64,000 bases of DNA, taken from the NCBI GenBank assembly GCA_964569655.1, contig CAZMTN010000001.1, forward strand, positions 139,395-203,394. The letters run 5' to 3'. A program made the translations under genes and the position numbers. Of this stretch, positions 1,510 to 50,651 are shown piece after piece. Numbering within the stretch: the first letter of the stretch is position 1; the number at the start of each line of letters is the position of its first letter. This stretch comes from an uncultured Candidatus Saccharibacteria bacterium (GTDB taxonomy: Bacteria > Patescibacteriota > Minisyncoccia > Phycocordibacterales > Phycocordibacteraceae). The notes beneath the pieces are model-generated. The model searched no databases. It was given only the letters and a program-made list of their open reading frames with translations, and was not told where the DNA came from.

Positions 1510-1518
1510 TGGTAGGGT
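1510..1518 (+). promoter_or_regulatory. Extended -10 element TGgTAGGGT six nt upstream of the ATG at 1525; putative leaderless promoter
   Basis: Read directly; same TGGTAnnnT-N6-ATG layout as at rpmG and ddl. Confidence 0.3.
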
Positions 1519-1524
1519 GAGGCT

Positions 1525-2685
1525 ATGTTTGGAAAGAGACGCATCTATCTCGACTGGGCAGCCGGCGCTCCCGTGACCCGGAGCGCGGAGCGCGCGTACC
1601 TGCGCGCCTCCGCTTCGTTCGGCAATCCGTCCTCGCCGCACGCGGAAGGATTGGCGGCGAAAGCCGTTCTCGAGGACGCGCGCACCCGGATCGCGCGCGA
1701 GCTCTCCATGAAGCCGGACGATGTCATCTTCACCGCCGGCGCGACCGAAGCGAACAACCTCGCTATCCAAGGAACGGTGATCGCCAAGAAGAAGGCGGGT
1801 ATGAAGGATATCCATCTTCTCTATCTCCCGTCCGCGCACGCGTCCGTCGTCGAGGCCATGAAGTCGCTCGTCGGATACGGCGTCACCGCAGAGCCCCTCA
1901 AGATACGAGACGGGGCAGTGGACATACGCGCCCTCAACGAGCAATTGCGCCCGGAGACGGCGCTCGTGTCGGTCGACTTCGTCTGCGGCGAGACCGGGAC
2001 CATCTGGAACGTACGGGAGATCGGGCAGGCTCTGAAGCAGGCCGGGCACGGCACCCTGCTCCACGTGGATGCGAGCCAGGCGCCGCTCGGGGAATCCATC
2101 GAGCGTACCCGCCTCGCGGCCGATATGATCACGCTCGACGCGCAGAAGGTGGGCGGCATGCGCGGCCTCGGCGTGCTCGCGGCTCCGCGGACGCTGCGTA
2201 TGGAGCCGCTCCAGCATGGCGGCGGCCAGGAACGGGGCATGCGTCCCGGCACGCAGGCGCCAGCGCTGGCTGCCGCATTCGCGACCGCGCTCGAAGAGGC
2301 GCGTGTCTGTCGCGAATCGTTCAGGCATCGCGCAGGGCGTATGCGCGGCGGGCTTATTGCCTGCATACGGGATATCCCGGAACTCTATATAAATGAGGGG
2401 AAGGAGGGTGTGGCTCACATCCTCAACCTCTCGCTCCCCGGTCGGGATACGGACTACCTCGCCGCGCTTTTGAACGAGGCTGGCTTCGCGGTCTCCACAC
2501 GAAGCGCCTGCGAATCGGAATCAGAAGACGGCTCCCGCGCGGTGCTCTCGCTTACCGGCGACCCCGCCCGCGCTGCCTCCACGCTGCGCGTCTCCTGGGG
2601 CCCCGTAACGAGGGAGCGGGAGCTGCGTCAGCTCGGGAAGGCGCTTATCGCGGCTGCCGCCTTCCTTGACGGCAGTACGGCCTAG
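1525..2685 (+). CDS. Cysteine desulfurase / aminotransferase class V (IscS/NifS-like)
   Basis: 386-aa ORF with fold-type I PLP enzyme motifs (TAGATEANN, LHVDASQA, mature Lys region); typical NifS/IscS length. Confidence 0.8.
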   Translation: MFGKRRIYLDWAAGAPVTRSAERAYLRASASFGNPSSPHAEGLAAKAVLEDARTRIARELSMKPDDVIFTAGATEANNLAIQGTVIAKKKAGMKDIHLLYLPSAHASVVEAMKSLVGYGVTAEPLKIRDGAVDIRALNEQLRPETALVSVDFVCGETGTIWNVREIGQALKQAGHGTLLHVDASQAPLGESIERTRLAADMITLDAQKVGGMRGLGVLAAPRTLRMEPLQHGGGQERGMRPGTQAPALAAAFATALEEARVCRESFRHRAGRMRGGLIACIRDIPELYINEGKEGVAHILNLSLPGRDTDYLAALLNEAGFAVSTRSACESESEDGSRAVLSLTGDPARAASTLRVSWGPVTRERELRQLGKALIAAAAFLDGSTA

Positions 2686-2692
2686 TTGCTTA

Positions 2693-2720
2693 TTGCGAGC
2701 GCTTTTACCAGGTGTATACT
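2693..2720 (+). promoter_or_regulatory. Putative sigma70-like promoter TTGCGA-N16-TGtATACT; transcription start predicted at or near the ATG at 2727 (leaderless)
   Basis: Hexamers read from the sequence; the -10 ends 6 nt before the ATG. Confidence 0.3.
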
Positions 2721-2726
2721 ACGTCC

Positions 2727-3461
2727 ATGAATATCGACGACCTCTCGAAATCCCAACTCCTCCTCCTCACCCTGCTGGTGAACTTCGTCATGTCCATCGC
2801 GACCGGGATCGTCACCGTCTCGCTCCTCGACCAGGCGCCCGCAACCATCACGCAGACCGTGAACCGCATCGTCGAGCACACGGTGGAGACCGTCGCTCCG
2901 GCTTCGCAGGTCGCGGCAGTCGTAAGCTCTGACCCGCAGCCCACCGAAGAGGATCTGCTCGTCGCGGCCATCGCGTCGGACGCGGCACGCACGGTATTCA
3001 TTCATGCCGAGGAAGGGGAGACGCAGGTCCTCGCGCAAGGCGTCTACCTCCCGATCTCCCGCGTAGTGGTCGTCATCAAGGACTCGTCGCTTCCGAAGGA
3101 GGCGGCAGTCTCATTCCCGAATGGCACTGTCGCGCCGGTGTCGATCGCGCTCGAGAACGATAATCTCACCATCTACGGATTCGGCGACGGCGCTGCGCTC
3201 CCGAGCGCACCGGTAGCGCCGCTCCTCCCGCTCGAGAACCTGAAGCAGGGCCAGGCGGTCATCGCGCTCCTTGCGGACGGCAGCGCCGTCACGGGCATCG
3301 TCTCCAAGGTCGAGGGCATCAACGTCACCACCACCCTTCCGGCTACGCCGAAGGGCGCAGCGGCGCTCACGCTCCGCGGCGAGATCGCCGGCATCCAGAG
3401 CGGCTCCGGCGCTTTCATAAGCGCGAGCGAGATCAACGCGCTCCTCTCAACTCCTCAGTAA
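2727..3461 (+). CDS. Hypothetical membrane-anchored protein
   Basis: ORF track 2712..3461 begins on GTG; the in-frame ATG at 2727 (MNIDDLSK...) sits just after the promoter. One N-terminal TM helix (LLLLTLLVNFVMSIATGIVTVSLL); no recognisable catalytic motif. Confidence 0.5.
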   Translation: MNIDDLSKSQLLLLTLLVNFVMSIATGIVTVSLLDQAPATITQTVNRIVEHTVETVAPASQVAAVVSSDPQPTEEDLLVAAIASDAARTVFIHAEEGETQVLAQGVYLPISRVVVVIKDSSLPKEAAVSFPNGTVAPVSIALENDNLTIYGFGDGAALPSAPVAPLLPLENLKQGQAVIALLADGSAVTGIVSKVEGINVTTTLPATPKGAAALTLRGEIAGIQSGSGAFISASEINALLSTPQ

Positions 3462-6211: not shown

Positions 6212-6240
6212 TTGCGGAATACGGCCTTATTTGGTAGATT
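6212..6240 (+). promoter_or_regulatory. Putative promoter TTGCGG-N17-TGgTAGATT; leaderless start 6 nt downstream at rpmG
   Basis: Hexamers read from the sequence. Confidence 0.35.
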
Positions 6241-6246
6241 TGATGC

Positions 6247-6402
6247 ATGTCACAGGACCACCTGATCAAGCTCAAGTCGACCAAGTCGGCCCACGTCTAT
6301 TTCACGCGCAAGAACCGCAAGAAGGTTGAGCGCAAGATCGAGCTCATGAAGTTCGATCCGACGCTCAGGAAGCGCGTCGCCTACAAGGAAGCGAAGAAAT
6401 AA
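6247..6402 (+). CDS. rpmG: 50S ribosomal protein L33
   Basis: 51-aa ORF MSQDHLIKLKSTKSAHVYFTRKNRKKVERKIELMKFDPTLRKRVAYKEAKK, matching the L33 pattern (...TKNKR..P.KLELKKFDP..RKHV.YKE.K). Below the ORF-track length cutoff. Confidence 0.85.
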   Translation: MSQDHLIKLKSTKSAHVYFTRKNRKKVERKIELMKFDPTLRKRVAYKEAKK

Positions 6403-8607: not shown

Positions 8608-8680
8608 GTATGCGCAGGGTATCAGATAGGGCGCTGTGGGAAAAGGCTTCCCTCAGGGTTTCGTAGGCTAGAATGGACCC

Positions 8681-9649
8681 ATGACCCGATTCCGTACCCC
8701 GCTGCTTATCATCGCCATCTCCTGCATAGCGGCGCTCCCGCTGCTTGCGTCTGCGCAGATCGGGGACATGCCGACGACCATCGTCCCTCCGGATATCCAG
8801 GATTGCCCGGCTAACTGGAACGGCCTCGTATCCGGTTTCAATAACCTCATCAAGTTCGTGCTTTCCTTCGCGGTGATCATCGCCATCCTCGTGATCGCGT
8901 ACGCCGGCTTCCTCCTCGTCCTCACTCCGGCCAATCCGGAGAATCGCGGCACAGCTCGCGGCCTGCTGCTTAATGCCGCTATCGGCCTCGTGCTGGCGCT
9001 TTCCGCATGGCTCATCGTGAACACCATCCTCACGGCGGTCACTGGGAAGGACATAGGCACGTTCACCGGATTCATCAGCAGCGGCACGGGCGGAGATTGC
9101 ATATTGCCGAAGGGAGGGACTGCGCCTACCGGAGGCGGAGGGGGGATAAGTACCGGGGGAGGCACCGGCACCTGCGCCAACTGCGTCTCGCTTGCGACCG
9201 CAGGAATCGAGAATAAGGGAGTGGGCGTTGCCTGCAACGTCTCAGGTGGCCGTGATGGCGTTCCGGTGCAGAACCCACCGCTTGATGACTGCGTGGTAGA
9301 TAAAGATCTCGCCGCGAAGCTCAAGACCTCCATGAAAAGCGGCATGTGGGTGACCGAGGCGTGGCCGCCAACCCGTAATCACCACAACCCGTGCCATGCG
9401 AACGGCACCTGCGTCGATGTTGATTACAAGAATAATCGTTCCGACGCAGCTTCCATCAATGCATTCATAAGCTCGGCGAGTTCAGCCGGACTCGGCGTCG
9501 TGTATGAGCTTTCAAGCGCATCCTCCTGCAAGGTATTACTTGACGCTGGCGTGCCGGCAAAGAATCTCGATGTGGTACCGGGCATCACCGGCCCACACTT
9601 CTCGGTCTACAGCGGCCCGGTCAACAACGCCAATGGCGGCTGCAATTAG
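8681..9649 (+). CDS. Secreted/membrane protein: N-terminal TrbC/VirB2-like two-helix pilin region, Gly/Thr-rich linker, C-terminal Cys/His-rich domain with a possible LAS/M15-like metal site
   Basis: Signal peptide MTRFRTPLLIIAISCIAALPLLASAQ. Two TM helices separated by PANPENRG, a VirB2/TrbC-like layout. GGGGGISTGGGTGT linker. C-terminal HHNPCHANGTCVDVD, resembling the HxxGxAxD motif of M15/VanY-type zinc hydrolases. Both domain assignments are tentative. Confidence 0.5.
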   Translation: MTRFRTPLLIIAISCIAALPLLASAQIGDMPTTIVPPDIQDCPANWNGLVSGFNNLIKFVLSFAVIIAILVIAYAGFLLVLTPANPENRGTARGLLLNAAIGLVLALSAWLIVNTILTAVTGKDIGTFTGFISSGTGGDCILPKGGTAPTGGGGGISTGGGTGTCANCVSLATAGIENKGVGVACNVSGGRDGVPVQNPPLDDCVVDKDLAAKLKTSMKSGMWVTEAWPPTRNHHNPCHANGTCVDVDYKNNRSDAASINAFISSASSAGLGVVYELSSASSCKVLLDAGVPAKNLDVVPGITGPHFSVYSGPVNNANGGCN

Positions 9650-10488
9650 GCAAGTAGCTTCCGCATCCACGCCTTCTGTCTGCGCGCGTAGTGCCAGAGC
9701 TTCGAGGATAAGGCCGGGAACAGGGAAGCCTCATCCCGCTCTCCGCGCAGGTACTCCCCGACGATTTTATACTCAAGCCCGAACTCGCTGAGGCGCGCAT
9801 CGCCGACGTAGTTGCGGACGCGCTCCACTTCCTTGATGAGTCCGCGCTCAAGTGCTTGTGCGAGGCGCCTGTCGAGGCGCTCGCGAAGGTCCTCCCTCGG
9901 CAGGTCTATGACGATCCATTCAGGCTTGTATTTCGATACCGCATCCCGCTTCGGCACGCGGCCGTGCTGCTCGATGATCTCGAGCGCACGGACGAGCCGG
10001 CGCCTATTCTTCGGATCGAGCTCCGCGGCCCGCTCTGCATCCTTCTCTTCGATCAGGGCGTAGAGCTCCTCATCAGGGAGATTTTCAAGCTTTGCGCGGA
10101 GCTCATCGTTCATCGGCGTATTGCCCGGGATGCCGTTCAGCAACGCGTCAAAGTAGTAGTGGGTGCCGCCGGCGAGTATCGGAATCTTGCCGCGCTTGTA
10201 GATCTCCAGGATGAGCTTCTCGGCGTCCGCCACGAAATCCCCGGCGCTGTACGCGTCCTTCGGGTCCCGAATATCGATGAGATGGTGGGGGACGCCTTGC
10301 ATCTCCTCGGGGGAGATCTTCTCCGTGCCGATATCGAGCATCCGGTACACCTGGCGGGAGTCCACCGATATGACCTCTCCGCCCTGTTCGAGGGCCTCGG
10401 CGACGGCTCTGGCGGACTTTCCGGAGGCGGTCGGCCCGATGATGCAGATAAGCGGTATTTGCTGCCCCATTTGCCGGAATGCTATCAT
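9646..10488 (-). CDS. miaA: tRNA dimethylallyltransferase MiaA
   Basis: P-loop IGPTASGKS near the N-terminus and MiaA-conserved regions (VISVDSRQVYR, LIDI, ILAGGTHYYF). A minus-strand TATTTA -10 lies 5 nt upstream of the ATG. Confidence 0.85.
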   Translation of the reverse strand: MIAFRQMGQQIPLICIIGPTASGKSARAVAEALEQGGEVISVDSRQVYRMLDIGTEKISPEEMQGVPHHLIDIRDPKDAYSAGDFVADAEKLILEIYKRGKIPILAGGTHYYFDALLNGIPGNTPMNDELRAKLENLPDEELYALIEEKDAERAAELDPKNRRRLVRALEIIEQHGRVPKRDAVSKYKPEWIVIDLPREDLRERLDRRLAQALERGLIKEVERVRNYVGDARLSEFGLEYKIVGEYLRGERDEASLFPALSSKLWHYARRQKAWMRKLLA

Positions 10489-12018: not shown

Positions 12019-12082
12019 GTGCCCATTATCCTACGTACCAATTGTCCTTCTGGCAATGCGCGCGTGATACAATGCATCCAAT

Positions 12083-13027
12083 ATGACGGCAGGAAATTTC
12101 CAGGAGCCGACCCGCTATGACTCGGTCTATTGGGTGGAGACGGAGCGCGTGAAGCCGAATCCGTATCAGCCGCGCAAGGAATTCGACGAGGAGCGCCTCA
12201 AGTCCCTCGCCGAATCCATCCGCCAGTACGGCATCCTCCAGCCGCTCACCGTGACGCGCACCGAGACCGTGAAGCCGGACGGCGGCATCCAGAGCGGATA
12301 TGAGCTCATCGCCGGGGAGCGCCGCCTGCGCGCTGCGATGCTCATCGGCCTCAGGGAAGTGCCGGTGGTAATCCGCGTCGGGGAGGAATCGAGCAAGATG
12401 AAGCTCGAGCTCGCCATCATCGAGAATCTCCAGCGCGAGGACCTCAATGCCATCGACCGCGCGAAGGCGCTCTCGCAGCTCGCCAAGGAGTTCGGCCTCT
12501 CGCACGCGGAGATCGGCACGCGCGTGGGCCGCAGCCGCGAGTTCGTGAGCAACAGCATCCGTCTCCTCCAGCTGCCTGAGGAGATCCAGCAGGCCGTCAC
12601 CGACAAGAAGATCTCCGAGGGGCACGCCCGCGCGCTCCTCATGCTCTGCGACCGCCCGGAGGAGCAGATGACTCTCTTCAAGGACATGGTGCTCAAGAAG
12701 ACTTCGGTACGTGTCGCGGAGCAGCTCGCCCGCCGCATCGCGACCGACAAGATCCGCAAGCACGATAAGACGCCGGAGATGATGGAGATCGAGAAGTCCC
12801 TCACCGAGACGCTCGGCACCCGCGTCCTCATCGAGAACCGACCGCAGGGCGGCCGCGTCCTCATCGAGTTCTTCTCCCCGGAGGATCTGAATACCATCCT
12901 TGCTGCGATCGCGCCTAAGGAGCCGGACATGGCGGAAGTGGCCGTCGAGGCGCCTATCGTCGAGGCTACCGACCCTGAGCCGAAGGAAGAGGAGGATATC
13001 TACTCCATCAAGAATTTCGTAGTCTAG
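12083..13027 (+). CDS. parB: Chromosome partitioning protein ParB/Spo0J
   Basis: ParB box (LIAGERRLRAA), HTH region and ParB N-terminal domain; 314 aa. An upstream TGaTACAAT -10 lies 9 nt before the ATG. Confidence 0.85.
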   Translation: MTAGNFQEPTRYDSVYWVETERVKPNPYQPRKEFDEERLKSLAESIRQYGILQPLTVTRTETVKPDGGIQSGYELIAGERRLRAAMLIGLREVPVVIRVGEESSKMKLELAIIENLQREDLNAIDRAKALSQLAKEFGLSHAEIGTRVGRSREFVSNSIRLLQLPEEIQQAVTDKKISEGHARALLMLCDRPEEQMTLFKDMVLKKTSVRVAEQLARRIATDKIRKHDKTPEMMEIEKSLTETLGTRVLIENRPQGGRVLIEFFSPEDLNTILAAIAPKEPDMAEVAVEAPIVEATDPEPKEEEDIYSIKNFVV

Positions 13028-14637: not shown

Positions 14638-14673
14638 ACTGCGATTGAAGTTCCTTGGGAAGGGAAACAGATC

Positions 14674-20591: not shown

Positions 20592-20598
20592 GGGCTGA

Positions 20599-21567: not shown

Positions 21568-21576
21568 TCGGCATAT

Positions 21577-31739: not shown

Positions 31740-31745
31740 TATACT
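31740..31745 (+). promoter_or_regulatory. TATACT -10-like hexamer 7 nt upstream of the ATG at 31753 (leaderless pattern)
   Basis: Read directly; no Shine-Dalgarno sequence present. Confidence 0.3.
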
Positions 31746-31752
31746 TACTCGT

Positions 31753-34485: not shown

Positions 34486-34486
34486 T
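34478..34486 (+). promoter_or_regulatory. TGtCATAAT extended -10, 8 nt upstream of the ATG at 34495
   Basis: Read directly; overlaps the stop of the upstream ATPase gene. Confidence 0.3.
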
Positions 34487-34494
34487 TCGTCTAT

Positions 34495-36441: not shown

Positions 36442-36455
36442 TACACTAATCACAT

Positions 36456-36758
36456 ATGAATCCAGACGAAATCCAGAAGAAGGTAGCGGACGACCTCGGC
36501 ATCGGCGACCTTTCTGACGAGGAGCAGAAAAAGATAATCGCCGACTTCGGCGGCGTGGCGCTCCAGGCCTCCACGGTAGCCGTCATCGAGGCGCTCCCAG
36601 CGGAAAGGCGCAACGAATTCGCGCAGCTCCTCCAGGCGGGGGACGAGGAGGCCGTCGCTACCTTCCTCGGCGCGAATTTGCCGGACCACGAGAACGTGGC
36701 GCGTCAAGCGGTCGCAGCCGAGATCCAGCGCTTCAAGGACTTCCAGAAGACGGTATAA
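36456..36758 (+). CDS. Hypothetical small acidic protein (100 aa)
   Basis: TACACT -10-like hexamer 7 nt upstream of the ATG. Confidence 0.4.
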   Translation: MNPDEIQKKVADDLGIGDLSDEEQKKIIADFGGVALQASTVAVIEALPAERRNEFAQLLQAGDEEAVATFLGANLPDHENVARQAVAAEIQRFKDFQKTV

Positions 36759-36768
36759 TACTTTCCGT

Positions 36769-37266
36769 ATGACAATCACCAACACCGGTATCGCCGTCGC
36801 GCTCGCTGTAGCGGTCGCGCTCGGGTTCCTGTTCTTCGGTCCGTCACTGTTCGCGCCGCTAAGCAATGCAGCTATCCCTAATGAAATGATCATGCCAGAG
36901 AACAACGCAAACCCGGTCGCTACCATCCCTGATGCTACCGAGCTTCAGATCAATGACGTGCAGCCAGGCACCGGCGCTACCGCCGAGGCCGGAGACACGG
37001 TAACGGTGGAGTACGTGGGCGCGCTCACCAACGGCAGCGTCTTCGACGCTTCGGAGAATCACGGCCAGCCGTTCACCTTTACGCTCGGCGCGGGAAGTGT
37101 CATCCAGGGATGGGAGCAGGGTATTGTCGGCATGAAGGAGGGAGGCCAGCGCGTCCTCATCATCCCCCCGCAGCTCGGCTATGGTCCTACCGGCAATGGT
37201 CCGATCCCGGGGAACGCTACGCTTCTCTTCCAGGTGCAGCTCGTGAGCGTGCAGAAAGGGAACTAG
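36769..37266 (+). CDS. FKBP-type peptidyl-prolyl cis-trans isomerase with N-terminal membrane anchor
   Basis: FKBP core (GDTVTVEYVGALTNGSVFDAS ... GAGSVIQGWEQGIVGMKEGGQRVLIIPPQLGYG). TATAAT lies 9 nt upstream of the ATG. Confidence 0.8.
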   Translation: MTITNTGIAVALAVAVALGFLFFGPSLFAPLSNAAIPNEMIMPENNANPVATIPDATELQINDVQPGTGATAEAGDTVTVEYVGALTNGSVFDASENHGQPFTFTLGAGSVIQGWEQGIVGMKEGGQRVLIIPPQLGYGPTGNGPIPGNATLLFQVQLVSVQKGN

Positions 37267-38188: not shown

Positions 38189-38355
38189 GGGTATTCTCCT
38201 TGCAAGACATTGATGGGGTTGAATCCAATTCCTTCGATCTCGAAAGACCTTCGAAACAGCTAGGATGGAATATACTCTATATACAGTATGTTGTCAATAC
38301 CCCTCCTTGCTTGTATTTCCTTGCCCAAATGGCCCCCTGCAGCTAGGGTGAGAAG

Positions 38356-39573
38356 GTGAATCCCATCTCTTTCTCCATAGACAAGAAGGACCCAGCGAGC
38401 CGGGCGCGCGCCGGCACGCTTACCACGCCGCACGGCGTCATCAAGACGCCTGCCTTCGTACCGGTCGGCACCAAAGCGAACGTGAAGGGAGTGCTTCCGG
38501 AGACGCTGGTGAAGCTCGGCGCGCAAGTCGTGCTTGCAAACACGTACCATCTGTATCTCTCTCCCGGAGAGAAGATCGTGAACCAGGGCGGCAAGCTCGG
38601 GACATTCATGGGATGGAATGGACCAACCATGACCGACTCGGGCGGATTCCAAGTGTTCTCGCTCGGTGCAGCGTTCGGCAAGACCATCACCAAGTTCGTG
38701 AAGGAGGATGCGCCGCAGGAAGAGGGCGTCTCGGTCTACGACGAGAGCGTCGCGAGCCAGCACGGCCAGCTCGCCGTCATCGATGAGGAAGGCGTCTCCT
38801 TCACCTCGCATCTCGATGGCTCGCTCCACCGCTTCACGCCGGAGCGCTCCATCGAGATACAGCAGGCGCTCGGCGCGGACATGTTCTTCGCCTTCGACGA
38901 GTGCACGTCTCCGAATGCGCCGTACGAGTACCAGCGCGAGGCTATGGAGCGCACGCACCGCTGGGCACAGCGGAGCCTTAAGGCGCACCGCCAGAACATC
39001 GACGCCAACAAGGTGCAGGGCATCTTCGGTATCGTGCAGGGAGGACGTCATGAGGATCTCCGGAGGGAATCCGCGAAGGAGATCGCGAGCATGGGCTTCG
39101 ACGGCATCGGCATCGGCGGATCCTTCAGCAAGGAGGACATGCGTGGCGCGCTCCAGGCTGCGGTGGGCGAATTGCCCGACGAGCTCCCGAAGCACTTCCT
39201 CGGCATCGGGGAGCCGGGAGACATCCTTGAGGGCATCGCGAACGGCATGGACCTCTTCGACTGCGTCGCAGCGACGCGCATCGGCCGCCACGGCTCTATC
39301 TATACGAAGCGAGGCATCATCCATCTCACTGGGGAGCGCTACAAGGATGAATTCGTCCCGCTTGACCCCGAGACCGTGATCCCGGGCACGGAGACATTCA
39401 CGCGCGCGTACGTCGCCCACCTCATCCGCTCCAAGGAGCTTCTCGGCTCGGTGATCTGCTCCATGCACAACGTCGGATTCATCCTGAAGCTGGTAGACGA
39501 GGCGCGCGAGGCCATCGAGCAGGGGAGGTTCGCTGCCTTCACTGAGGAGTTCAGGAGCTCGTACTACGCTTGA
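38356..39573 (+). CDS. tgt: Queuine tRNA-ribosyltransferase
   Basis: Tgt TIM-barrel motifs (TPHGVIKTPAFVPVGTKA, DSGGFQV, FDEC, GIGIGG); 405 aa; GTG start with AGGGTGA Shine-Dalgarno. Confidence 0.85.
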   Translation: MNPISFSIDKKDPASRARAGTLTTPHGVIKTPAFVPVGTKANVKGVLPETLVKLGAQVVLANTYHLYLSPGEKIVNQGGKLGTFMGWNGPTMTDSGGFQVFSLGAAFGKTITKFVKEDAPQEEGVSVYDESVASQHGQLAVIDEEGVSFTSHLDGSLHRFTPERSIEIQQALGADMFFAFDECTSPNAPYEYQREAMERTHRWAQRSLKAHRQNIDANKVQGIFGIVQGGRHEDLRRESAKEIASMGFDGIGIGGSFSKEDMRGALQAAVGELPDELPKHFLGIGEPGDILEGIANGMDLFDCVAATRIGRHGSIYTKRGIIHLTGERYKDEFVPLDPETVIPGTETFTRAYVAHLIRSKELLGSVICSMHNVGFILKLVDEAREAIEQGRFAAFTEEFRSSYYA

Positions 39574-40389: not shown

Positions 40390-40468
40390 CAGCTCCTGAA
40401 AGAAGCCGACCCGTCCCGGGCTCCGGCTTCTTTTTTCGTATAACCCCAAAATGGTAAGATAGGGGGTC

Positions 40469-42565
40469 ATGTCACTCTTTCAGCTCCATACCCCATTCCC
40501 GCCGGCCGGAGATCAGCCGAACGCTATCAAGGAGCTCACGAAGGGCCTTGAGAAGGGGCTGCGCCATCAGACGCTGCTCGGCGTCACCGGCTCAGGCAAG
40601 ACCTACACCTGCGCGAACGTGATCGCGAATCACGGCAAGCCGACGCTGGTGCTCGCGCACAACAAGACGCTCGCAGCGCAGCTCGCCCAGGAGTATCGCG
40701 AGTTCTTCCCAGAGAACCAGGTGCACTTCTTCGTTTCATACTACGACTACTATCAGCCGGAGGCGTACATAGCTCACTCGGATACGTACATCGAGAAAGA
40801 AGCGATGATTAACGCGGAGATAGACCGCCTCCGCCATGCGGCTACGCAGTCCCTCCTCACCCGGAAGGACGTCATCATCGTCGCTTCGGTGTCCGCCATC
40901 TACGGCCTCGGTTCCCCCGAGCAGTACGAGAAGGTGCACGTCCGGCTCGTGAAGGGCGAGGAGGTGGAGGGCGGCCGCGCCGGCCTTATCCGGAAGCTCA
41001 TCCGCATCTTCTTCGAGCGCACCAATGCCGACCTCGATCCGGGCAAGCTCCGCGCGGTCGGGAACGCAGTGGAGTTCATGCCGGTGAACGAGCGTTCCAT
41101 CTACCGCGTCCGCTTCGACGGCAACGTTATCGCCGGCATCGAGTGCCTCGATCCCGTATCCCGCGCAAAGACCGGCGAGGTGGATTCGACCTTCATCTTC
41201 CCGGCGAAGCACTTCGTCACGAGCGAGGACGAGCGGGACCGGGCGCTCGCGGATATCAAGAGCGAGCTCGAGGACCAGCTCGCGAAGCTGAAGCGCGAAG
41301 AGAAGCCGCTCGAGGCCGAGCGCCTGAAGCGCCGCACGCTCCACGACATCGCGCTCATCCGCGAGATGGGATACACGAGCGGCATCGAGAACTATTCCCG
41401 CCATTTCGACGGCCGGAAGCCCGGCGAACCGCCGCACACCCTGCTCTCATACTTCCCGCACCATAAGGACGGCAGCCCCGATTTTCTTACCGTCATAGAC
41501 GAATCCCACGTTACCGTCACCCAGATCGGCGGCATGTACGCTGGAGACCGCTCCAGGAAGGACGTGCTCATCGAGCACGGCTTCCGGCTGCCGTCCGCGC
41601 GCGACAACCGCCCCCTCATGTTCGAGGAGTTCGAGAAGCGCATCGGGCAGGTGATCTATACTTCTGCGACCCCTGGCGTCTACGAGCGGGAGCATTCGGA
41701 GCAGGTGGTGGAGCAGATCATCCGTCCGACGGGGCTCATCGACCCCGAGCTCGTCATCCGTCCGATCACTGAGGGCGTTGCAGCACCGGTGCTCGCTGGC
41801 ACGGAGATCATCCCTGAGCCGGACCCTGAGTACCGAGGGCAGATATCCGATTTCATACGGGAAGCGGAGATAGTCATTGCGCGCGGCGGTCGCGCGCTCG
41901 CGACCACGCTCACCAAGCAGATGGCCGAGGACCTTGCGTCCTTCCTGCTTGAGAAGAAGATCAAGGCCCAGTACCTCCATGCGGACGTGAAGACCATCGA
42001 CCGCATCCAGATCCTGTCCGAGTTCCGCAAGGGGACGTTCGACATTCTGGTCGGCGTGAACCTGCTGCGCGAAGGCCTCGACCTTCCTGAGGTTGAGCTG
42101 GTCGGCATACTCGACGCGGACAAGGAAGGCTTCCTCCGGTCAGAGACCTCGCTCATCCAGACCATCGGGCGCGCTGCCCGCAACGTGCTCGGGCGCGTCA
42201 TCCTCTACGCCGACCAGATGACGGGCTCAATGGAGCGCGCCATCGGGGAGACGAATCGCCGTCGTGCGGTACAGATCGCGTACAACACGAAGCACGGCAT
42301 CACCCCGGCAAGCATCAAGAAGGAGATCCGGGATATCGCTGAGTCTATCCGCAGCGAGCACGACAAGACCGTGGACTCGCTCCTCTCCATCGATGCCCGC
42401 ATCTACCGAGAGGATCCGGCGGAGTTCATCAAGGAGAAACGCCGCCAGATGGAGGAGGCGGTGGAGGCGCTCGACTTCGAGACGGCCGCCATCATCCGCG
42501 ACGAGATCTATGCGCTCGAGGGGAACGGGCCGAAGAAATCCAGGCCGAGAGGGAAGCGCCGCTGA
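40469..42565 (+). CDS. uvrB: Excinuclease ABC subunit B
   Basis: 698 aa. Helicase motifs (GVTGSGKT, DESH), beta-hairpin region, C-terminal UVR domain (ETAAIIRDEIYALEG). Confidence 0.9.
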   Translation: MSLFQLHTPFPPAGDQPNAIKELTKGLEKGLRHQTLLGVTGSGKTYTCANVIANHGKPTLVLAHNKTLAAQLAQEYREFFPENQVHFFVSYYDYYQPEAYIAHSDTYIEKEAMINAEIDRLRHAATQSLLTRKDVIIVASVSAIYGLGSPEQYEKVHVRLVKGEEVEGGRAGLIRKLIRIFFERTNADLDPGKLRAVGNAVEFMPVNERSIYRVRFDGNVIAGIECLDPVSRAKTGEVDSTFIFPAKHFVTSEDERDRALADIKSELEDQLAKLKREEKPLEAERLKRRTLHDIALIREMGYTSGIENYSRHFDGRKPGEPPHTLLSYFPHHKDGSPDFLTVIDESHVTVTQIGGMYAGDRSRKDVLIEHGFRLPSARDNRPLMFEEFEKRIGQVIYTSATPGVYEREHSEQVVEQIIRPTGLIDPELVIRPITEGVAAPVLAGTEIIPEPDPEYRGQISDFIREAEIVIARGGRALATTLTKQMAEDLASFLLEKKIKAQYLHADVKTIDRIQILSEFRKGTFDILVGVNLLREGLDLPEVELVGILDADKEGFLRSETSLIQTIGRAARNVLGRVILYADQMTGSMERAIGETNRRRAVQIAYNTKHGITPASIKKEIRDIAESIRSEHDKTVDSLLSIDARIYREDPAEFIKEKRRQMEEAVEALDFETAAIIRDEIYALEGNGPKKSRPRGKRR

Positions 42566-42586
42566 TAATCCTGCTATCATGATGGG

Positions 42587-43657
42587 ATGCCGCTGTGGCT
42601 TCTCTTCACGTGCGCATTCCTCGCGCTTGCGGTAGGCGCCGTCGCTACCGTGGGCTATTTCACGACGATCGTGCTCAAGGCGCTGGTGTCCGGCACCGCC
42701 TATATCGACGCCGCCTTTCAGTCCGGCATCATCGCCATCTTCCTTCTCCTTGTCATTGGAGCGCTCTTCTTCGTGCTCGAGCGCATCGTGGTGAAGCCGA
42801 TCAGGCACCTCACCCGGGCCGTGCAGGCGTTCGCGGAGCAGGGACAGCAGCTCCAGATGCCCTCATTCAAGTACACGCCGCTCGAGATCGAGCAGCTCAT
42901 GAGCTCGTTCGCGACGCTGGTAGGCAGCGTCGAGGCGTCGCACCGCCGCGACGTCGAAGTCTCGCGCGTGAAGTCCGACTTCATCTCTACCGCAGCGCAT
43001 CAGCTGCGCACGCCTCTTACCGGGATCCGCTGGTCCCTCGAGGCGCTCCAGAAGGGCCAGCTCACCCAGGAGCAGGTCCCGCTCGTGAATAGCGCGAACG
43101 ATAAGATCAAGGACCTGGTCGCCATCGTGAGCACGCTCCTCGACATCTCGTCTATCGAATCGGGGAAGTACCGCTACCATTTCGAGCCGGTGGACGTTGC
43201 GGTTCTCCTCGCCGAGATCGCGAATGACTTCATGCCGGTCGCGTCGGAGCGCAAGGTCTCCATCAGCGTGGATCCCATGAGCACGCTGCCGCCGATACGC
43301 GCGGACCGCGAGCGCATCAAGTGGGTGCTCAATAATCTCGTGGACAACGCCATCAATTACACGCCTGCGGGCGGTACGGTGCGCCTCCTCGCGGAAGCCG
43401 GCGCGGGACGCGTCATCATCCGCGTCCGGGACACGGGCATCGGCATCTCGGAACAGGACCGCGGCAACATCTTCGAGCGCTTCTACCGCGCGCCGAACGC
43501 GGTAGCGAAGGAGAATGCCGGCAACGGGCTCGGCCTCTACATCGCCCGCACCATCGCGAACGATCATGGTGGGGATCTGAACTTCGCCGCGAACGATCAC
43601 GGACCCGGAACCACGTTTGCGCTTTCCATACCGGTGGAGAACGGGAGAAGGCTGTAA
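42587..43657 (+). CDS. Sensor histidine kinase (two TM helices, HisKA, HATPase_c)
   Basis: H-box SDFISTAAHQLRTPLT; N, G1, G2 boxes (NLVDNAINYT, DTGIGI, GNGLGL). Confidence 0.8.
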   Translation: MPLWLLFTCAFLALAVGAVATVGYFTTIVLKALVSGTAYIDAAFQSGIIAIFLLLVIGALFFVLERIVVKPIRHLTRAVQAFAEQGQQLQMPSFKYTPLEIEQLMSSFATLVGSVEASHRRDVEVSRVKSDFISTAAHQLRTPLTGIRWSLEALQKGQLTQEQVPLVNSANDKIKDLVAIVSTLLDISSIESGKYRYHFEPVDVAVLLAEIANDFMPVASERKVSISVDPMSTLPPIRADRERIKWVLNNLVDNAINYTPAGGTVRLLAEAGAGRVIIRVRDTGIGISEQDRGNIFERFYRAPNAVAKENAGNGLGLYIARTIANDHGGDLNFAANDHGPGTTFALSIPVENGRRL

Positions 43658-43705
43658 TCCCATGAGGCGCCTTCCCAATTGTTCCTGTCTGGCTATACTG
43701 GCCCT

Positions 43706-44089
43706 ATGACCGCAACCAATTTCATACTCGTCGTCGAAGACGATCCGGTGCTCAAGAACCTCCTCGGGCATACGTTCGCGGGGAAGTACCAGACGCTATA
43801 CGCGTCAGACGGGGAACAGGCCCTCGCGTTCTTCGAGCAATACAAGCCGGCCGTCGTGCTGCTCGACCTCATGCTTCCCGGGATGAGCGGCTTCGATATC
43901 CTCCAGAAGATCCGCGCGCGCACGGACGAGCTCAAGGATACGCCCGTGGTCATCGTCTCGAACCTCGGCCAGTCCTCAGATAAGGAGAAGGCGCAATCCC
44001 TCGGTGCGAACGACTACCTCGTGAAGGCGGAGGTCTCTATCGAGGAGATCGTCGCCAAGATAGAAGGCATGGTGGCGAAGGCGGCATAG
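43706..44089 (+). CDS. Stand-alone response-regulator receiver domain (CheY-like)
   Basis: ILVVEDD, phospho-acceptor Asp in LLDLMLP, conserved T and K (VVIVSNLG ... DYLVKA); no output domain. Start at MTATNF. Confidence 0.75.
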   Translation: MTATNFILVVEDDPVLKNLLGHTFAGKYQTLYASDGEQALAFFEQYKPAVVLLDLMLPGMSGFDILQKIRARTDELKDTPVVIVSNLGQSSDKEKAQSLGANDYLVKAEVSIEEIVAKIEGMVAKAA

Positions 44090-44729: not shown

Positions 44730-44758
44730 TTAAACACGCATATCAGAAGGAGATACTC

Positions 44759-45184
44759 ATGCGTATGTTCATTGCAATCATTTTCGCTTCGGCAATGGCC
44801 TCATCTGCCTTGGCGGCTCCGATCAGCGCCGATCAGGAAAAGCTGGCAAAGCAGGTCACCAGCACAGTGCATTCTCTCCAAATCAAACAGGATTGGAGTG
44901 TGCAGGTGGTCAAGCCCGGTGTCTATACCAGGAATGGCCACATGGTGTCCTTGTACAACGGCTCGGTGAACGTGCGAGTCGGCAAAGGCCACTACGGCGA
45001 GCGGCTCGTCATCGTCATCATCCCGAGAAGCGGCCGGTACGATGCCGATGCGTGGACAATCAAAGATGGCGCCTGTCAGGCCGACAAAAGCCTGTCGTGG
45101 TGCGGGACGACGAGTCCCCAGGTCTGGGAAGACCTGTATTCGCGGGCGTTCAGCATGGCTCGTCACTACGACAGCGACCTGTAG
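44759..45184 (+). CDS. Small secreted protein with C-terminal Cys pair (paralog B)
   Basis: Signal peptide MRMFIAIIFASAMASSALAA; C-terminus CQADKSLSWCGTTSPQVWEDLYS, parallel to paralog A (C-x8-C...W..LY). Confidence 0.45.
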   Translation: MRMFIAIIFASAMASSALAAPISADQEKLAKQVTSTVHSLQIKQDWSVQVVKPGVYTRNGHMVSLYNGSVNVRVGKGHYGERLVIVIIPRSGRYDADAWTIKDGACQADKSLSWCGTTSPQVWEDLYSRAFSMARHYDSDL

Positions 45185-48365: not shown

Positions 48366-48394
48366 TTGTCAACAGACGCCAAAAACGGCATACT
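48366..48394 (+). promoter_or_regulatory. Putative uvrC promoter TTGTCA-N17-CATACT; ATG 6 nt downstream (leaderless)
   Basis: Read directly. Confidence 0.35.
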
Positions 48395-48400
48395 TTGCAT

Positions 48401-49669
48401 ATGGAACGCGCTGAGCTCAAAAAGTTCGACCTCCCGGACAGTCCGGGCGTATACCTCTTCAAGAAGGGGAGGAAGGTCCTGTATGTCGGGAAGGCGACCA
48501 GCCTGCGCGATCGCGTGCGCTCGTACTTCGATGACGACCTCATCGCTACCCGCGGGCCGCGACTGGTCGACATGATCACGAATGCCGATTCGGTCGCGTT
48601 CGAGGCGTCTCCGACGGTGCTCGAGGCCCTGGTGCGCGAATCCGCATTCATCCGGAAGTACGATCCCCCGGCGAACGCCATGGGAAAGGATGATAAGTCC
48701 TTCTTGTATGCCGTCATCACGGACGAGGCGATCCCGCGCGTGCTCGCGTTCCGCGGCACCGACATCGATTTCGAAGCGAAGCGCATGGGTGGCATCCCGC
48801 TCCGGGACATCTACGGCCCGTTCCCATCCGGCTATCAGCTGCGCGAAGGCCTGCGCCTCATCCGGCGCATCTTCCCGTTCTACGACACGGACCGCCCGCT
48901 CGAGGTGGATGCGGAGACCGGCCGCGTGGTGCGCGCGAAGAACAAGCACCACCAGGCCAAGGTGGAGTTCAACCGCCAGATCGGGCAGTACCCGCGCGAG
49001 TTCGATCGCAAGCAGTATCAGCGCTCTATCAGGAACGTCTCTCTCTTCCTTTCAGGACGCACCAAGGCGCTGCGTGAGACCCTGAACAAGGATATGAAGA
49101 CGGCCGCCAAGGAAGAGCGCTTCGAGGACGCCGCGGAGATCCGCCGGCAGCTGTTCTCGCTCGATCACATCCAGGACGTATCGCTCATCAAGGAGGATCG
49201 CTCCGAGGACAAGGAATCCCCGCGCATCGAGGCGTACGATACTGCCCACATCGGCGGCACCAACGCCATCGGAGTCATGACGGTGCTCGACGCGGGCGTC
49301 CCCGTGAAGAAGGATTACCGCACTTTCCGCATCCGCGGATACGGCGGGAAGAGCCTGAACGACGATATCTCGTCCCTCAAGGAGATCCTCGGGCGCAGGC
49401 TTACGCATGCCGAATGGCCGTACCCGAAGGCGATCGTCGTGGACGGCGGGAAGACGCATAAGAAGGCTGCCGAGGAGGTGCTCAAGGAAGCAGGAGTTGC
49501 TATTCCGGTTATCGCCGTCGTGAAGGACGAGAAGCACCGCCCGAGGGAGGTGCTCGGGTCACTCCGTTCCGGCGTGAAGGATGCGGACGCGGTTATGGCG
49601 AACAGCGAAGCGCACCGCTTCGCACTCAACAGGCATCGCCAGGCGCGCGCGAAGCGCATGCGCATGTAG
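48401..49669 (+). CDS. uvrC: Excinuclease ABC subunit C, short form (GIY-YIG, UvrBC-interaction and endonuclease domains; no C-terminal HhH)
   Basis: GIY-YIG PGVYLFKKGRKVLYVGKATSLRDRVRSYF starts at the Met at 48401; the ORF-track start 48131 adds 90 aa of low-complexity read-through. C-terminal IVVDGGK...IPVIAVVKDEKHR endonuclease region. 422 aa. Confidence 0.85.
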   Translation: MERAELKKFDLPDSPGVYLFKKGRKVLYVGKATSLRDRVRSYFDDDLIATRGPRLVDMITNADSVAFEASPTVLEALVRESAFIRKYDPPANAMGKDDKSFLYAVITDEAIPRVLAFRGTDIDFEAKRMGGIPLRDIYGPFPSGYQLREGLRLIRRIFPFYDTDRPLEVDAETGRVVRAKNKHHQAKVEFNRQIGQYPREFDRKQYQRSIRNVSLFLSGRTKALRETLNKDMKTAAKEERFEDAAEIRRQLFSLDHIQDVSLIKEDRSEDKESPRIEAYDTAHIGGTNAIGVMTVLDAGVPVKKDYRTFRIRGYGGKSLNDDISSLKEILGRRLTHAEWPYPKAIVVDGGKTHKKAAEEVLKEAGVAIPVIAVVKDEKHRPREVLGSLRSGVKDADAVMANSEAHRFALNRHRQARAKRMRM

Positions 49670-49670
49670 C

Positions 49671-49679
49671 TGGTATACT
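49671..49679 (+). promoter_or_regulatory. Extended -10 TGgTATACT, 6 nt upstream of the ddl ATG (leaderless)
   Basis: Read directly. Confidence 0.35.
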
Positions 49680-49685
49680 TTCCGC

Positions 49686-50651
49686 ATGAAAGGAACGGTC
49701 GTCGGCGTGCTTCGAGGGGGCCCTTCGCGCGAGCATGACGTATCGCTCAAGACCGGAGCGGCGATGGCGAAGAACCTATCTTCGGACCACTACCATATCC
49801 GCGACATCTATATCGACCGGAACGGCGTCTGGCATGAGCGCGGACGCGCCACCACGCCTTCCCGAGCACTTTCCTCGGTGGACGTGGTGCTTATCGGCCT
49901 GCATGGGGAATACGGGGAAGACGGCGAGGTACAGAAGGTGCTCGAGCGCCACGGCATCCCGTACGCGGGCTCGGATTCCCTCGGTTCCTTCCTCGCGATG
50001 CATAAGTTCCTCGCGAAGCAGCGCGCACGGGAGGCGGGACTCAAGGTAGCCCGCGACGTGTTCATCGAGCGGGCAGAAGATGCCGAGGTACGCGTCCAGG
50101 AGGCGGTGCGTTCCTTCCTCCAACCGGTGGTGGTGAAGCCGGTGCGCTGGGGTTCGTCGGTCGGCGTGTCGCTTCTGTCCGGATTCGCTCCGGTTAATGC
50201 GGCAGTGCAGAAGCTGTTTGCCGAAGGGGCGGAGGGCGTCCTCATCGAAGAGTTCATCCGCGGTACGGAGGCCACGGCGGGCGTCGTGGAGCACCTCAGG
50301 AACGAGGAGCTCTACGGGCTCCCGGTAGTGGAGATCATCCCGCCAGAGACCGATTTCTTCTCGTATGACGCCAAGTACTCCGGCGCGACCCAGGAGATCG
50401 TGCCGGGCAGGTTCCATCGGGACATCGCCCGGGAACTGTCCGAGGCGGCTAAGGTGATGCATCGGGAATTGGGTCTCCGGCACTACTCTCGCTCAGACTT
50501 CATCGTGTCTCCGCGCGGGATCTATTACCTCGAGACCAATACGCTCCCCGGCATGACGGAGCAGTCCCTCCTTCCGAAGTCCCTCGAATCCATAGGCGTA
50601 TCCTTCAAGGATTTCCTCTCGCACCTTATCCACCTAGCTACCAAGAAATGA
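49686..50651 (+). CDS. ddl: D-alanine--D-alanine ligase
   Basis: ATP-grasp: N-terminal GGPSREHDVSL, HGEYGEDG, C-terminal ETNTLPGMT. Start at MKGTVVGVLRGG; the ORF-track start 49581 is upstream read-through. Confidence 0.85.
   Translation: MKGTVVGVLRGGPSREHDVSLKTGAAMAKNLSSDHYHIRDIYIDRNGVWHERGRATTPSRALSSVDVVLIGLHGEYGEDGEVQKVLERHGIPYAGSDSLGSFLAMHKFLAKQRAREAGLKVARDVFIERAEDAEVRVQEAVRSFLQPVVVKPVRWGSSVGVSLLSGFAPVNAAVQKLFAEGAEGVLIEEFIRGTEATAGVVEHLRNEELYGLPVVEIIPPETDFFSYDAKYSGATQEIVPGRFHRDIARELSEAAKVMHRELGLRHYSRSDFIVSPRGIYYLETNTLPGMTEQSLLPKSLESIGVSFKDFLSHLIHLATKK

Follow-up and report, generated by a model that had tools for sequence, protein, structure and literature searches.

How are genes started in a stretch of DNA where many start codons are preceded not by a Shine-Dalgarno sequence but by what looks like a promoter? 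This question is raised by a 64-kb stretch of contig CAZMTN010000001.1, referred to here as the window (the whole of the DNA that was analysed, at its full length), in which the hexamer TAnnnT stands a few nucleotides upstream of many ATG codons. An earlier reading of the letters (the original prediction) had proposed that at least 14 genes of the window place such a hexamer so that transcription would begin at the ATG, giving leaderless mRNAs. We found this observation to be confirmed and stronger than first claimed, with at least 13 further genes added. We consider it very probable that the hexamers are sigma-70 extended -10 boxes set for a transcription start at or near the ATG, which would yield leaderless mRNAs in the window and in its relatives. 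Between one third and one half of the genes have such a box 6-9 nt ahead of the start codon, both in this ultrasmall bacterium and in ~100 pieces of related genomes.

In the mechanism that we propose, an extended -10 promoter (TGnTAtAaT) would place its hexamer at -12..-7, counted from the first base of the start codon, or at most 3 nt farther away from it, and RNA polymerase would start at, or 1-3 nt from, the ATG. The resulting mRNA would have no 5′ untranslated region (UTR) and no Shine-Dalgarno sequence, and its 5′-terminal AUG would be recognised directly by the ribosome with initiator tRNA. Ribosome loading of this kind is established for the leaderless mRNAs of Actinobacteria and Deinococcus (PMC6028130). 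For genes lying 9-25 nt behind a co-directional neighbour, the promoter would fall inside the 3′-terminal part of that neighbour. Expression of such internal genes would draw on these promoters and, probably, also on reinitiation along read-through transcripts.

The window has a GC content of ~60%, with a segment at 52-60 kb of 45-50%, and the genome is compact, in the style of the Candidate Phyla Radiation (CPR) and at ~60% GC. The window ClpB (3518-6199) is 79-84% identical to proteins of metagenome-assembled genomes of Candidatus Paceibacterota, the Patescibacteria group and Candidatus Kaiserbacteria, and the gene order around clpB is common to the window, L003-L005 and L011 (L-numbers denote loci from other genomes compared with the window). 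Kaiserbacteria belong to the Parcubacteria group of Patescibacteria in the NCBI taxonomy. Judged by the closest ClpB relatives and the common gene order, the source is an uncultured member of the Patescibacteria/CPR of Parcubacteria/Kaiserbacteria-like type. Several window proteins have identical copies only on short Logan contigs, from run SRR15237806.

Window genes were called using a self-trained codon score, and each open reading frame (ORF) was taken to start at its first ATG, a rule that is blind to the motif. The signature was defined as TAnnnT beginning 12-15 nt before the start codon (offsets 12-15) and was scored for 62 coding genes. Motif enrichment upstream of starts, the check suggested along with the original prediction, gave a clear result on the window: 21/62 first-ATG starts carried the signature compared with 39/2051 (1.9%) other ATGs (Fisher p=6e-19). 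Offsets 12/13/14/15 held 9/3/5/4 hexamers; farther out in these upstream regions, over offsets 16-45, the mean was ~0.9 per offset. The positional mode was exactly -12, where canonical numbering expects it when +1 is the A of the ATG. Because a first ATG is conditioned on an upstream in-frame stop, the enrichment was retested with hexamers unable to be TAA or TAG (TA[TC]nnT); these were still enriched (12/61 versus 1.4%, p=3e-10), and we rejected a stop-codon artefact as the source of the signal. After curation, strict TAnnnT at offsets 12-15 was present at 27/62 genes, and the total came to 30/62 when 34495, 48401 and an alternative TspO start at 27685 were included. Start codons of the 30 candidates were ATG in 29 and GTG in one (tgt), the starts used for the statistics having been chosen as first ATGs.

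Shine-Dalgarno sequences were distributed differently. At the -10-associated starts, no Shine-Dalgarno 4-mer or 5-mer was found in -20..-4 apart from a G-run at uvrB. A strict Shine-Dalgarno 5-mer preceded 10/62 window starts versus 5.5% of control ATGs (p=0.002), which bears out the claim that leaderless and Shine-Dalgarno initiation are mixed in this organism. The four Shine-Dalgarno examples named earlier (24190, 44150, 44759, 62102) are among these ten and are as described, 44150 being weak (AAGGAAG). The leadered Shine-Dalgarno genes of the window carry TAnnnT boxes of their own, 25-37 nt upstream, and clpB, topA, serS and the peroxiredoxin gene have conserved -10 boxes 20-45 nt upstream with no Shine-Dalgarno motif. 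The remaining window genes have short leaders and no obvious signal, and a few are start/stop-overlapped and probably translationally coupled. On these counts the predicted leaderless design would account for about 45% of window genes, and a leader with a Shine-Dalgarno sequence for about 15%.

All 18 sites quoted in the original prediction (14 leaderless, 4 Shine-Dalgarno) were re-read, and the hexamer, spacer and start of each were tabulated. Thirteen of the 14 leaderless sites stood; the exception was miaA at 10488 (- strand), which has no TAnnnT at -12..-15. A strict TAnnnT, with 6-9 nt between its last T and the ATG, is present at eleven of the 14 (1525, 2727, 6247, 12083, 20599, 21577, 22712, 31753, 36456, 36769 and 49686), and two have near-consensus hexamers (TGtCATAAT at 34495; CATACT at 48401, with a TTGTCA -35 element at 17 nt). 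A Shine-Dalgarno motif is missing from all 14. The sequence TGtATACT at 2727 had been offered as an extended TG; here the TG abuts the hexamer directly, so there is no TGn extension. Pfam agreed with the gene names that had been given: iscS-like (class-V aminotransferase), rpmG (L33), miaA, parB, dus, dnaX, the methyltransferase, FKBP, uvrC and ddl. All sequence-level expectations for a -10 box placed for a transcription start at the ATG held, and from these we infer the start itself. The candidate boxes, with their strands and starts, are as follows.

1513..1527 (+): TGgTAGGGT (-10 box 1513-1518), 6-nt spacer, ATG of the IscS/NifS-like aminotransferase gene (1525); L003 and L004 orthologues also at offset 12.
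2715..2729 (+): TTGCGA-16-TATACT, 6-nt spacer, ATG of a hypothetical gene (2727); box kept in L003-L007 and L011 at offsets 12-15.
6235..6249 (+): TTGCGG-17-TGgTAGATT, 6-nt spacer, ATG of rpmG (L33) (6247); TTGCnn-17-TAnnnT kept in L002-L005.
8669..8683 (+): TAGAAT, 6-nt spacer, ATG of a type IV secretion system (T4SS)-pilin-like gene, absent from the original prediction; TACAAT at the same offset in L003.
10468..10484 (-): TGaTAGCAT, 8-nt spacer, ATG 10470 of miaA (corrected start); independent gene call and L003 orthologue.
12068..12085 (+): TGaTACAAT, 9-nt spacer, ATG of parB (12083); independent gene call agrees.
14623..14638 (-): TATGCT, 7-nt spacer, ATG 14625 (the ORF's second ATG) of relA/spoT; aligned ATG in L011 with TACTAT at offset 12.
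20586..20601 (+): TATGAT, 7-nt spacer, ATG of dus (20599), the preceding gene's stop 19 nt before; sequence and Pfam.
21563..21579 (+): TATAAT, 8-nt spacer, ATG of dnaX (21577), the dus TAA stop inside the hexamer (TA-TAA-T); TAAAAT at offset 13 in L006.
22700..22714 (+): TGtTATTGT, 6-nt spacer, ATG of the methyltransferase gene (22712), immediately behind tRNA-Gln; sequence and Pfam.
25090..25104 (+): TATACT, 6-nt spacer, ATG of a hypothetical gene; sequence.
25456..25471 (+): TGcTAAGCT, 7-nt spacer, ATG of a hypothetical gene; sequence.
26785..26799 (+): TGcTATCAT, 6-nt spacer, ATG of a PNPOx-like gene; sequence.
28162..28176 (+): TAAATT, 6-nt spacer, ATG of TspO, the hexamer's first three bases being the upstream TAA stop; tentative.
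30420..30434 (+): TGgTACACT, 6-nt spacer, ATG of a membrane protein gene (Phage_holin_4_2 family).
31740..31755 (+): TATACT, 7-nt spacer, ATG of the VirD4/TraG-like ATPase gene (31753); kept in metagenome orthologues (see below).
34481..34497 (+): TGtCATAAT, 8-nt spacer, ATG of a 648-aa hypothetical gene (34495), the upstream TAA stop inside the hexamer (CA-TAA-T).
36442..36458 (+): TACACT, 8-nt spacer, ATG of a DUF5663 gene (36456), the upstream TAG stop adjoining the hexamer.
36754..36771 (+): TATAAT, 9-nt spacer, ATG of the FKBP gene (36769), the upstream TAA stop inside the hexamer (TA-TAA-T).
38344..38358 (+): TAGGGT, 6-nt spacer, GTG of tgt; the sole non-ATG case, tentative.
40455..40471 (+): TGgTAAGAT, 8-nt spacer, ATG of uvrB (40469).
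42575..42589 (+): TGcTATCAT, 6-nt spacer, ATG of the histidine kinase gene (42587).
43694..43708 (+): TATACT, 6-nt spacer, ATG of the response regulator gene.
48389..48403 (+): TTGTCA-17-CATACT, 6-nt spacer, ATG of uvrC (48401); independent gene call agrees.
49674..49688 (+): TGgTATACT, 6-nt spacer, ATG of ddl (49686).
54155..57523 (+): four more candidates in the low-GC island, starts 54170, 54754, 56708 and 57521; weaker, as AT-rich DNA raises chance.
24172..24192 (+): Shine-Dalgarno contrast gene, GAGGAG 8 nt before ATG 24190.
44741..44761 (+): Shine-Dalgarno contrast gene, AAGGAG 7 nt before ATG 44759, with promoter-like TGTAGTAT ~30 nt upstream.
62084..62104 (+): Shine-Dalgarno contrast gene, AAGGAGG 6 nt before ATG 62102.

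We asked how these boxes fare in other genomes. At orthologous starts the -10 box stays at a constant distance while the hexamer and its surroundings change, as the following examples illustrate.

iscS-like gene: TAGGGT (window), TAGTGT (L003) and TACAAT (L004), all at offset 12.
Gene 8681: TAGAAT and TACAAT, offset 12.
rpmG: TTGCnn-17-TAnnnT in five genomes.
relA: TATGCT at 13 and TACTAT at 12.
dnaX: TATAAT at 14 and TAAAAT at 13.
VirD4-like gene: TATACT at 13 in the window and L005.

When metagenomes were scanned with the VirD4-like ATPase, orthologues of 50-69% amino acid identity were recovered on 80 contigs. Among those with usable upstream sequence, TAnnnT was present at offsets 12-15 of the first ATG in 63/77; most of these boxes are a perfect TATAAT or TATACT, and the flanks are otherwise unalignable. 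Taken together, the alignments and counts show a box position that is under purifying selection, at ~45% of genes.

The identical pipeline was then applied to three sets of loci: 13 CPR loci around clpB, 50 non-CPR controls (Proteobacteria, Desulfobacterota, Acidobacteria and others; GC 41-73%) and 57 metagenome loci, the last counted without the query gene. The 648-aa protein (34495-36441) found no relatives as a query of the genome collection, and clpB and the VirD4-like ATPase were used as queries instead.

CPR loci around clpB (13): TAnnnT at 60/206 starts (29%) versus 5.7% of control ATGs, p=9e-25; Shine-Dalgarno 9.2% versus 9.1%.
Non-CPR loci (50): TAnnnT at 22/700 starts (3.1%) versus 1.7%; Shine-Dalgarno 34% versus 8.7%, p=3e-74.
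Metagenome loci (57): TAnnnT at 259/727 starts (35.6%) versus 5.8%, p=3e-122; Shine-Dalgarno 6.3% versus 9.5%, depleted, p=0.003.

The usual Shine-Dalgarno pattern in the non-CPR loci shows that the pipeline reproduces what is normal for bacteria. Offset 12 peaked at 187 per 1000 in the metagenome loci, versus 12 per 1000 in controls. The original prediction had described an organism-level feature; its presence in CPR relatives and not in the control loci makes it a feature of the lineage as well. By these counts Parcubacteria-type relatives have the signature in common, among them contigs that carry the names Giovannonibacteria, Ryanbacteria and Kaiserbacteria. Two loci with other labels, L014 (Candidatus Udaeobacter) and L015 (Gammaproteobacteria), show the CPR start-codon signature, and we considered whether it extends beyond the CPR. 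This is improbable, as their other genes match CPR loci ~4:1; from their CPR-like gene content, L014, L015 and L023 (labelled only "bacterium", with the signature at 0/7 starts) are probably mislabelled or mis-binned. The window organism (60% GC) is unusual among its relatives: a minority of its genes are still led by strong Shine-Dalgarno sequences, and for this reason it has probably retained an anti-Shine-Dalgarno (anti-SD) sequence. The 3′ end of 16S rRNA, sought in all 162 sequences, was found only in four alphaproteobacterial control loci.

Many of the boxes lie within tightly packed arrays, which raises the question of whether they matter there. At 20599, 21577, 26797, 28174, 34495, 36456, 36769, 42587 and 49686 the box stands behind a co-directional gene with a gap of only 9-21 nt. 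In some the upstream stop adjoins or joins the hexamer, as in TA-TAA-T at 21577 and 36769 and CA-TAA-T at 34495. The window hexamers that share bases with the upstream stop lie at 21563-21568, 28162-28167, 34481-34486 and 36754-36759. Co-directional gap lengths in the CPR loci peak at 4 and 9 nt, and at a gap of 9 nt an upstream TAA forms the first half of a hexamer at -12. Sorted by the distance to the preceding gene, CPR loci carry TAnnnT at offsets 12-15 as follows.

Overlapping genes: 17%.
Gap 0-11 nt: 29%.
Gap 12-25 nt: 35%.
Divergent genes or gap 26-60 nt: 45-50%.

Stop codons inflate chance matches in tight junctions, and we therefore built a null from pseudo-starts placed at equal distances after the stops of genes without a close neighbour. 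At junctions of 0-25 nt, 83/268 starts (31%) carried the box, compared with 36±5/268 (~13.5%) under the null and a maximum of 57 in 2000 resamplings. The enrichment over this stop-anchored null is thus 2.3-fold, weaker than elsewhere, and where a junction is no longer than 12 nt, any single box is tentative.

These arrays bear on the alternative that survives best, although we think it unlikely: the promoters would be real, leaderless monocistronic mRNAs would be minor, and packed genes would owe most of their protein to termination-reinitiation, at the nearby ATG, on polycistronic read-through transcripts. Terminators have no space in gaps of 9-21 nt, and the peaks of gap length at 4 and 9 nt, the presence of the motif at 17% of overlapping gene pairs, and the start/stop overlaps (ATGA) at 27273 and 50648 all fit such a scheme. 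However, the motif is as frequent or more so (45-50%) at divergent and long-gap genes, which have no upstream cistron, and the 2.3-fold enrichment in tight junctions implies selection for the box there too.

If the boxes are promoters set for a start at the ATG, they should look like promoters. TGn precedes 10/25 (40%) of start-associated hexamers compared with 28/741 (3.8%) of the other TAnnnT in the window (p=5e-8), and the inner bases of the hexamers follow TATAAT/TATACT. Across 391 start-associated hexamers from the window and related CPR loci, T reaches 52% at -15 and G 48% at -14, T/A/A dominate at -10/-9/-8, and a weak TT(G) appears at -35..-33. Clear -35 elements are present in the rpmG orthologues (TTGCnn-17), at 2727 and at uvrC. 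The identification of the start-associated boxes as sigma-70-type extended -10 promoters, with the -35 element weak or missing, is supported by this base pattern.

The same box is found at genes that are never translated. TAnnnT stands 8-9 nt before the mature 5′ end of three of the four window tRNA genes: tRNA-Trp (8536-8607, - strand), tRNA-Leu (11935-12018, - strand) and tRNA-Ala (51002-51076, + strand). The promoter of tRNA-Leu is as follows:

12019..12056 (-): TTGCCA-17-TAGGAT promoter, ending 9 nt before the mature tRNA-Leu 5′ end (12018).

TAnnnT at offsets 13-17 preceded 32/54 tRNA genes in CPR loci (mode 15) and 0/19 in non-CPR loci, and this spacing implies that CPR tRNA 5′ leaders would be only ~1-3 nt long. 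As the box is common to untranslated tRNA genes, the signal is transcriptional and not a ribosome-binding site. Randau and colleagues are said to have described in 2008 leaderless tRNA transcription in Nanoarchaeum equitans, with promoters immediately upstream of mature tRNA 5′ ends. In the CPR tRNA genes, by contrast, a box ending 8-9 nt before the tRNA and an offset mode of 15 predict a leader of 1-3 nt rather than none.

The tRNA genes also count against a second alternative, which we regard as improbable, namely that the box acts not as a promoter but in the translation of a leadered mRNA, as a non-Shine-Dalgarno, A/U-rich ribosome- or S1-binding site of the kind that defines the Bacteroidota-type "group B" of GeneMarkS-2. 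The box does occupy the usual position of a ribosome-binding site (RBS), it also precedes internal genes of co-directional arrays, which is the behaviour defining group B (PMC6028130), and the relatives do not use Shine-Dalgarno sequences. Yet T-12, A-11 and T-7 with TG at -15/-14 and TT(G) at -35/-34 form a sigma-70 pattern and not an A-rich tract; tRNA genes carry the box shifted by ~3 nt; and the leadered Shine-Dalgarno genes of the window have TAnnnT 25-37 nt upstream instead.

A third alternative, more doubtful again, is that start codons have been misassigned, so that true starts lie downstream and the promoter gives a normal leader holding an in-frame ATG. Misassignment was real once, as 10488 is not the start of miaA, and relA begins at the second ATG of its ORF. 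The real miaA start is 10470, according to an independent gene call on a Logan contig and an L003 orthologue with an equal number of residues before the P-loop. TGaTAGCAT and 8 nt precede this ATG, and the ATG at 10488 falls within the box; thus the idea of the original prediction holds for miaA at the corrected start. For relA, the L011 orthologue points to 14625, and look-ups of the product with a start at 14625 or 14637 returned no record. Both corrected starts again have a -10 box 7-8 nt upstream, which argues against misassignment as the explanation. Furthermore, orthologue N-termini align from residue 1 in seven genes (iscS, 2727, rpmG, 8681, VirD4-like, 36456 and FKBP), the Pfam domains of ParB, Dus and IF2 begin a few residues after the start, independent gene calls give the same starts at 12083, 34495, 36456, 36769, 48401, 49686 and miaA 10470, and no Shine-Dalgarno sequence was found before the next in-frame starts.

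Chance is effectively refuted: although TAnnnT has only 3 fixed bases and could arise near starts from AT-rich DNA or neighbouring stops without function (the stop-anchored null reaches 13.5% in tight junctions, and 6-11% of control ATGs carry it in AT-rich relatives), the sharp peak at offset 12 over a flat 16-45 profile in the same upstream regions, the p values in the window and relatives, the enrichment of hexamers unable to be stop codons, the co-enriched TGn and the absence of the signature from 50 control loci of similar GC all speak against it.

Several points nevertheless weigh against our preferred reading of leaderless transcription from extended -10 boxes. A scan of 1-20 kb for the full -35/-10 consensus gave 4 sites versus 4.0 expected, with no enrichment; extended -10 promoters have weak -35 elements, which explains this outcome, and as a consequence the case rests on the extended -10 features. 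T at -12 is absent from two hexamers (34495 and 48401), and the start of miaA had been misplaced in the original prediction. Gene calls in the related loci are crude, being the first ATG of ORFs picked by codon score. Some of the internal promoters are probably accidental, given that stop codons raise chance in tight junctions. For the 8-9-nt spacers (12083, 21577, 34495, 36456, 36769 and 40469), a leader of 1-3 nt would be as likely as none. Finally, we infer both the position of the transcription start and leaderless translation.

Leaderless genomes as such are well known. In the "group C" genomes of GeneMarkS-2 the defining signal is a Pribnow box ~10 nt before the first genes of operons, and the group takes in 90% of Actinobacteria, 97% of Deinococcus-Thermus and few others (PMC6028130). 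Actinobacteria (Mycobacterium tuberculosis, M. smegmatis, Corynebacterium and Streptomyces) resemble the window in having TAnnnT 6-8 nt upstream with no Shine-Dalgarno sequence, and 25-50% of their transcription units are leaderless, with Shine-Dalgarno-led genes alongside (PMC6028130), a fraction comparable to that of the window. The present case differs from the group C lineages in belonging to the Patescibacteria/CPR, and also in that the box is common at internal genes 9-25 nt behind a neighbour, where it often shares stop-codon bases. A prominent TGn extension sets the window and its relatives further apart from group C. Non-leaderless genes of group C use Shine-Dalgarno sequences, whereas these are not enriched or are depleted in the relatives of the window and are used in part by the window itself (10/62). 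For Deinococcus deserti, the part of the work by de Groot et al. 2014 that is cited in PMC6028130 gives leaderless mRNAs for 167/262 genes with mapped transcription and translation starts. There, as in the window, the -10 box adjoins the start codon; according to that account the D. deserti case is verified by RNA-seq and proteogenomics, whereas ours is known from sequence, and phylum and genome style differ. Archaeal leaderless mRNAs (haloarchaea and Sulfolobus; "group D") likewise begin at the start codon with the promoter at a fixed distance, although the archaeal TATA/BRE lies ~26 nt upstream (PMC6028130), in contrast to the bacterial sigma-70 -10 box at -12 in the window.

Within the lineage itself, an anti-SD motif was present in only 48% of Parcubacteria 16S genes, Shine-Dalgarno helices are probably unformed in about half of Parcubacteria, and the mode of initiation was left open (Tsurumaki et al. 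2022, PMC9297842). That study examined rRNA and ribosomal proteins rather than mRNA 5′ regions, and leaderless mRNAs are unmentioned in it. Our search for literature linking leaderless mRNAs with CPR, Patescibacteria, Saccharibacteria or Parcubacteria, which did not extend to most subscription journals, gave only incidental co-occurrences. The word "leaderless" is absent from a 2024 perspective on Patescibacteria biology, and a TM7x transcriptome preprint does not discuss transcription start sites, UTRs or promoters. A set of 188 Nanosynbacter lyticus transcription start sites was used in PMC12641261. It is not certain that the phenomenon is unreported, and annotation pipelines may already model leaderless CPR starts silently.

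In a broader interpretation, Parcubacteria-type Patescibacteria as a lineage, and possibly all CPR, would express their genes predominantly by leaderless initiation, with Shine-Dalgarno sequences largely abandoned and tRNA leaders of 1-3 nt; we regard this as a serious possibility, though one that we would not yet back over its opposite. Under this interpretation at least one third of genes, including packed internal ones, would have their own extended -10 box ending 6 nt before the ATG, and internal promoters would often be built over the preceding gene's stop codon. If true, it would explain initiation in Parcubacteria without an anti-SD sequence, and the promoter-at-ATG design is a concrete candidate answer to the initiation question in PMC9297842. 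The CPR would also join Actinobacteria and Deinococcus-Thermus as the third large bacterial group dependent on leaderless mRNAs, and as the most extreme of the three. The CPR/Patescibacteria make up a very large and nearly uncultured share of bacterial diversity, with reduced ribosomes, and the result would add a data point to the debate on the ancestral status of leaderless initiation. The mechanism is itself textbook and detectable by GeneMarkS-2, so the advance lies in lineage and extent rather than principle: a known mechanism in a lineage for which no report was found, with a compact variant architecture. In practice, the box would fix start codons for miaA (10470), relA (14625) and possibly TspO (27685), gene finders with Shine-Dalgarno-based models would be wrong for such genomes, and TGnTATAAT, 6 nt and ATG with no RBS could serve as an expression cassette for Patescibacteria tools.

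Several further features of the window were noted. At the divergent junction between miaA (- strand) and the peroxiredoxin gene (+ strand), ATGATAGCAT (10479-10488) is conserved in L003 although there it is out of frame and lies outside coding sequence. It can be read as a pair of overlapping extended -10 boxes set back to back: TGaTAGCAT for miaA, and its complement TGcTATCAT, a candidate + strand -10 box for the peroxiredoxin gene at 10512 with a leader of ~17 nt and no Shine-Dalgarno sequence.

The 13-mer GCAATGCGCGCGT has two exact copies (1496-1508 and 12053-12065, + strand), upstream of 1525 and 12083 and both in divergent promoter regions. Its reverse complement provides the TTGC -35 element of the infB and tRNA-Leu promoters. 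We considered the 13-mer as an operator and rejected it: with up to 2 mismatches there were 8 hits versus 4.0 expected, 5/100 shuffles reached 8, and it is unconserved in L003 and L004; the two exact copies alone are not statistically significant. The gene whose promoter shares this element, infB (3-1460, - strand), encodes an IF2 with the GTPase domain from residue 9 and the N-terminal region missing, with a start conserved in L003 and L004, and such a truncated IF2 may be relevant to leaderless initiation.

Upstream of clpB, a leader of ~30 nt without a Shine-Dalgarno sequence (3485-3517) contains the palindrome ATTACTAGGTAAT. In L012, a CIRCE-like element, TAGCACTC-N9-GAGTGCTAA, lies upstream of clpB and overlaps its -10 box, which hints at control by a heat-shock operator. 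The Shine-Dalgarno-led hypothetical genes 44150 and 44759 (44105-44150 and 44715-44759) have the promoter-like TGTAGTAT in common ~30-40 nt upstream; the two units may be paralogous, and their neighbours, the histidine kinase and response regulator genes, are of the predicted leaderless type. The longest ORF of dprA (17716-18654, - strand) overlaps serS (18416-19684, + strand) head-to-head by 239 nt, and the real dprA start is therefore probably well downstream of 18654. Further window genes recognised by Pfam encode a short IF2, ClpB, RelA/SpoT, TopA, DprA, SerS, Tgt, UvrA/B, a two-component pair and the VirD4/TraG-like ATPase.

The low-GC (45-50%) segment, at 51002-62700, begins at tRNA-Ala (51002-51076) and is bordered by a large serine recombinase gene (51013-52551, - strand) whose 3′ end overlaps the tRNA gene. 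It holds mostly hypothetical genes, a dCMP deaminase and several Shine-Dalgarno-led genes (61222, 62102), and is probably an integrated mobile element. Within a 1.6-kb gene-free stretch of this segment, 53038-53161 (+ strand) matches the Rfam LOOT RNA (RF03000) with 53.3 bits and E=3e-7, above the gathering score.

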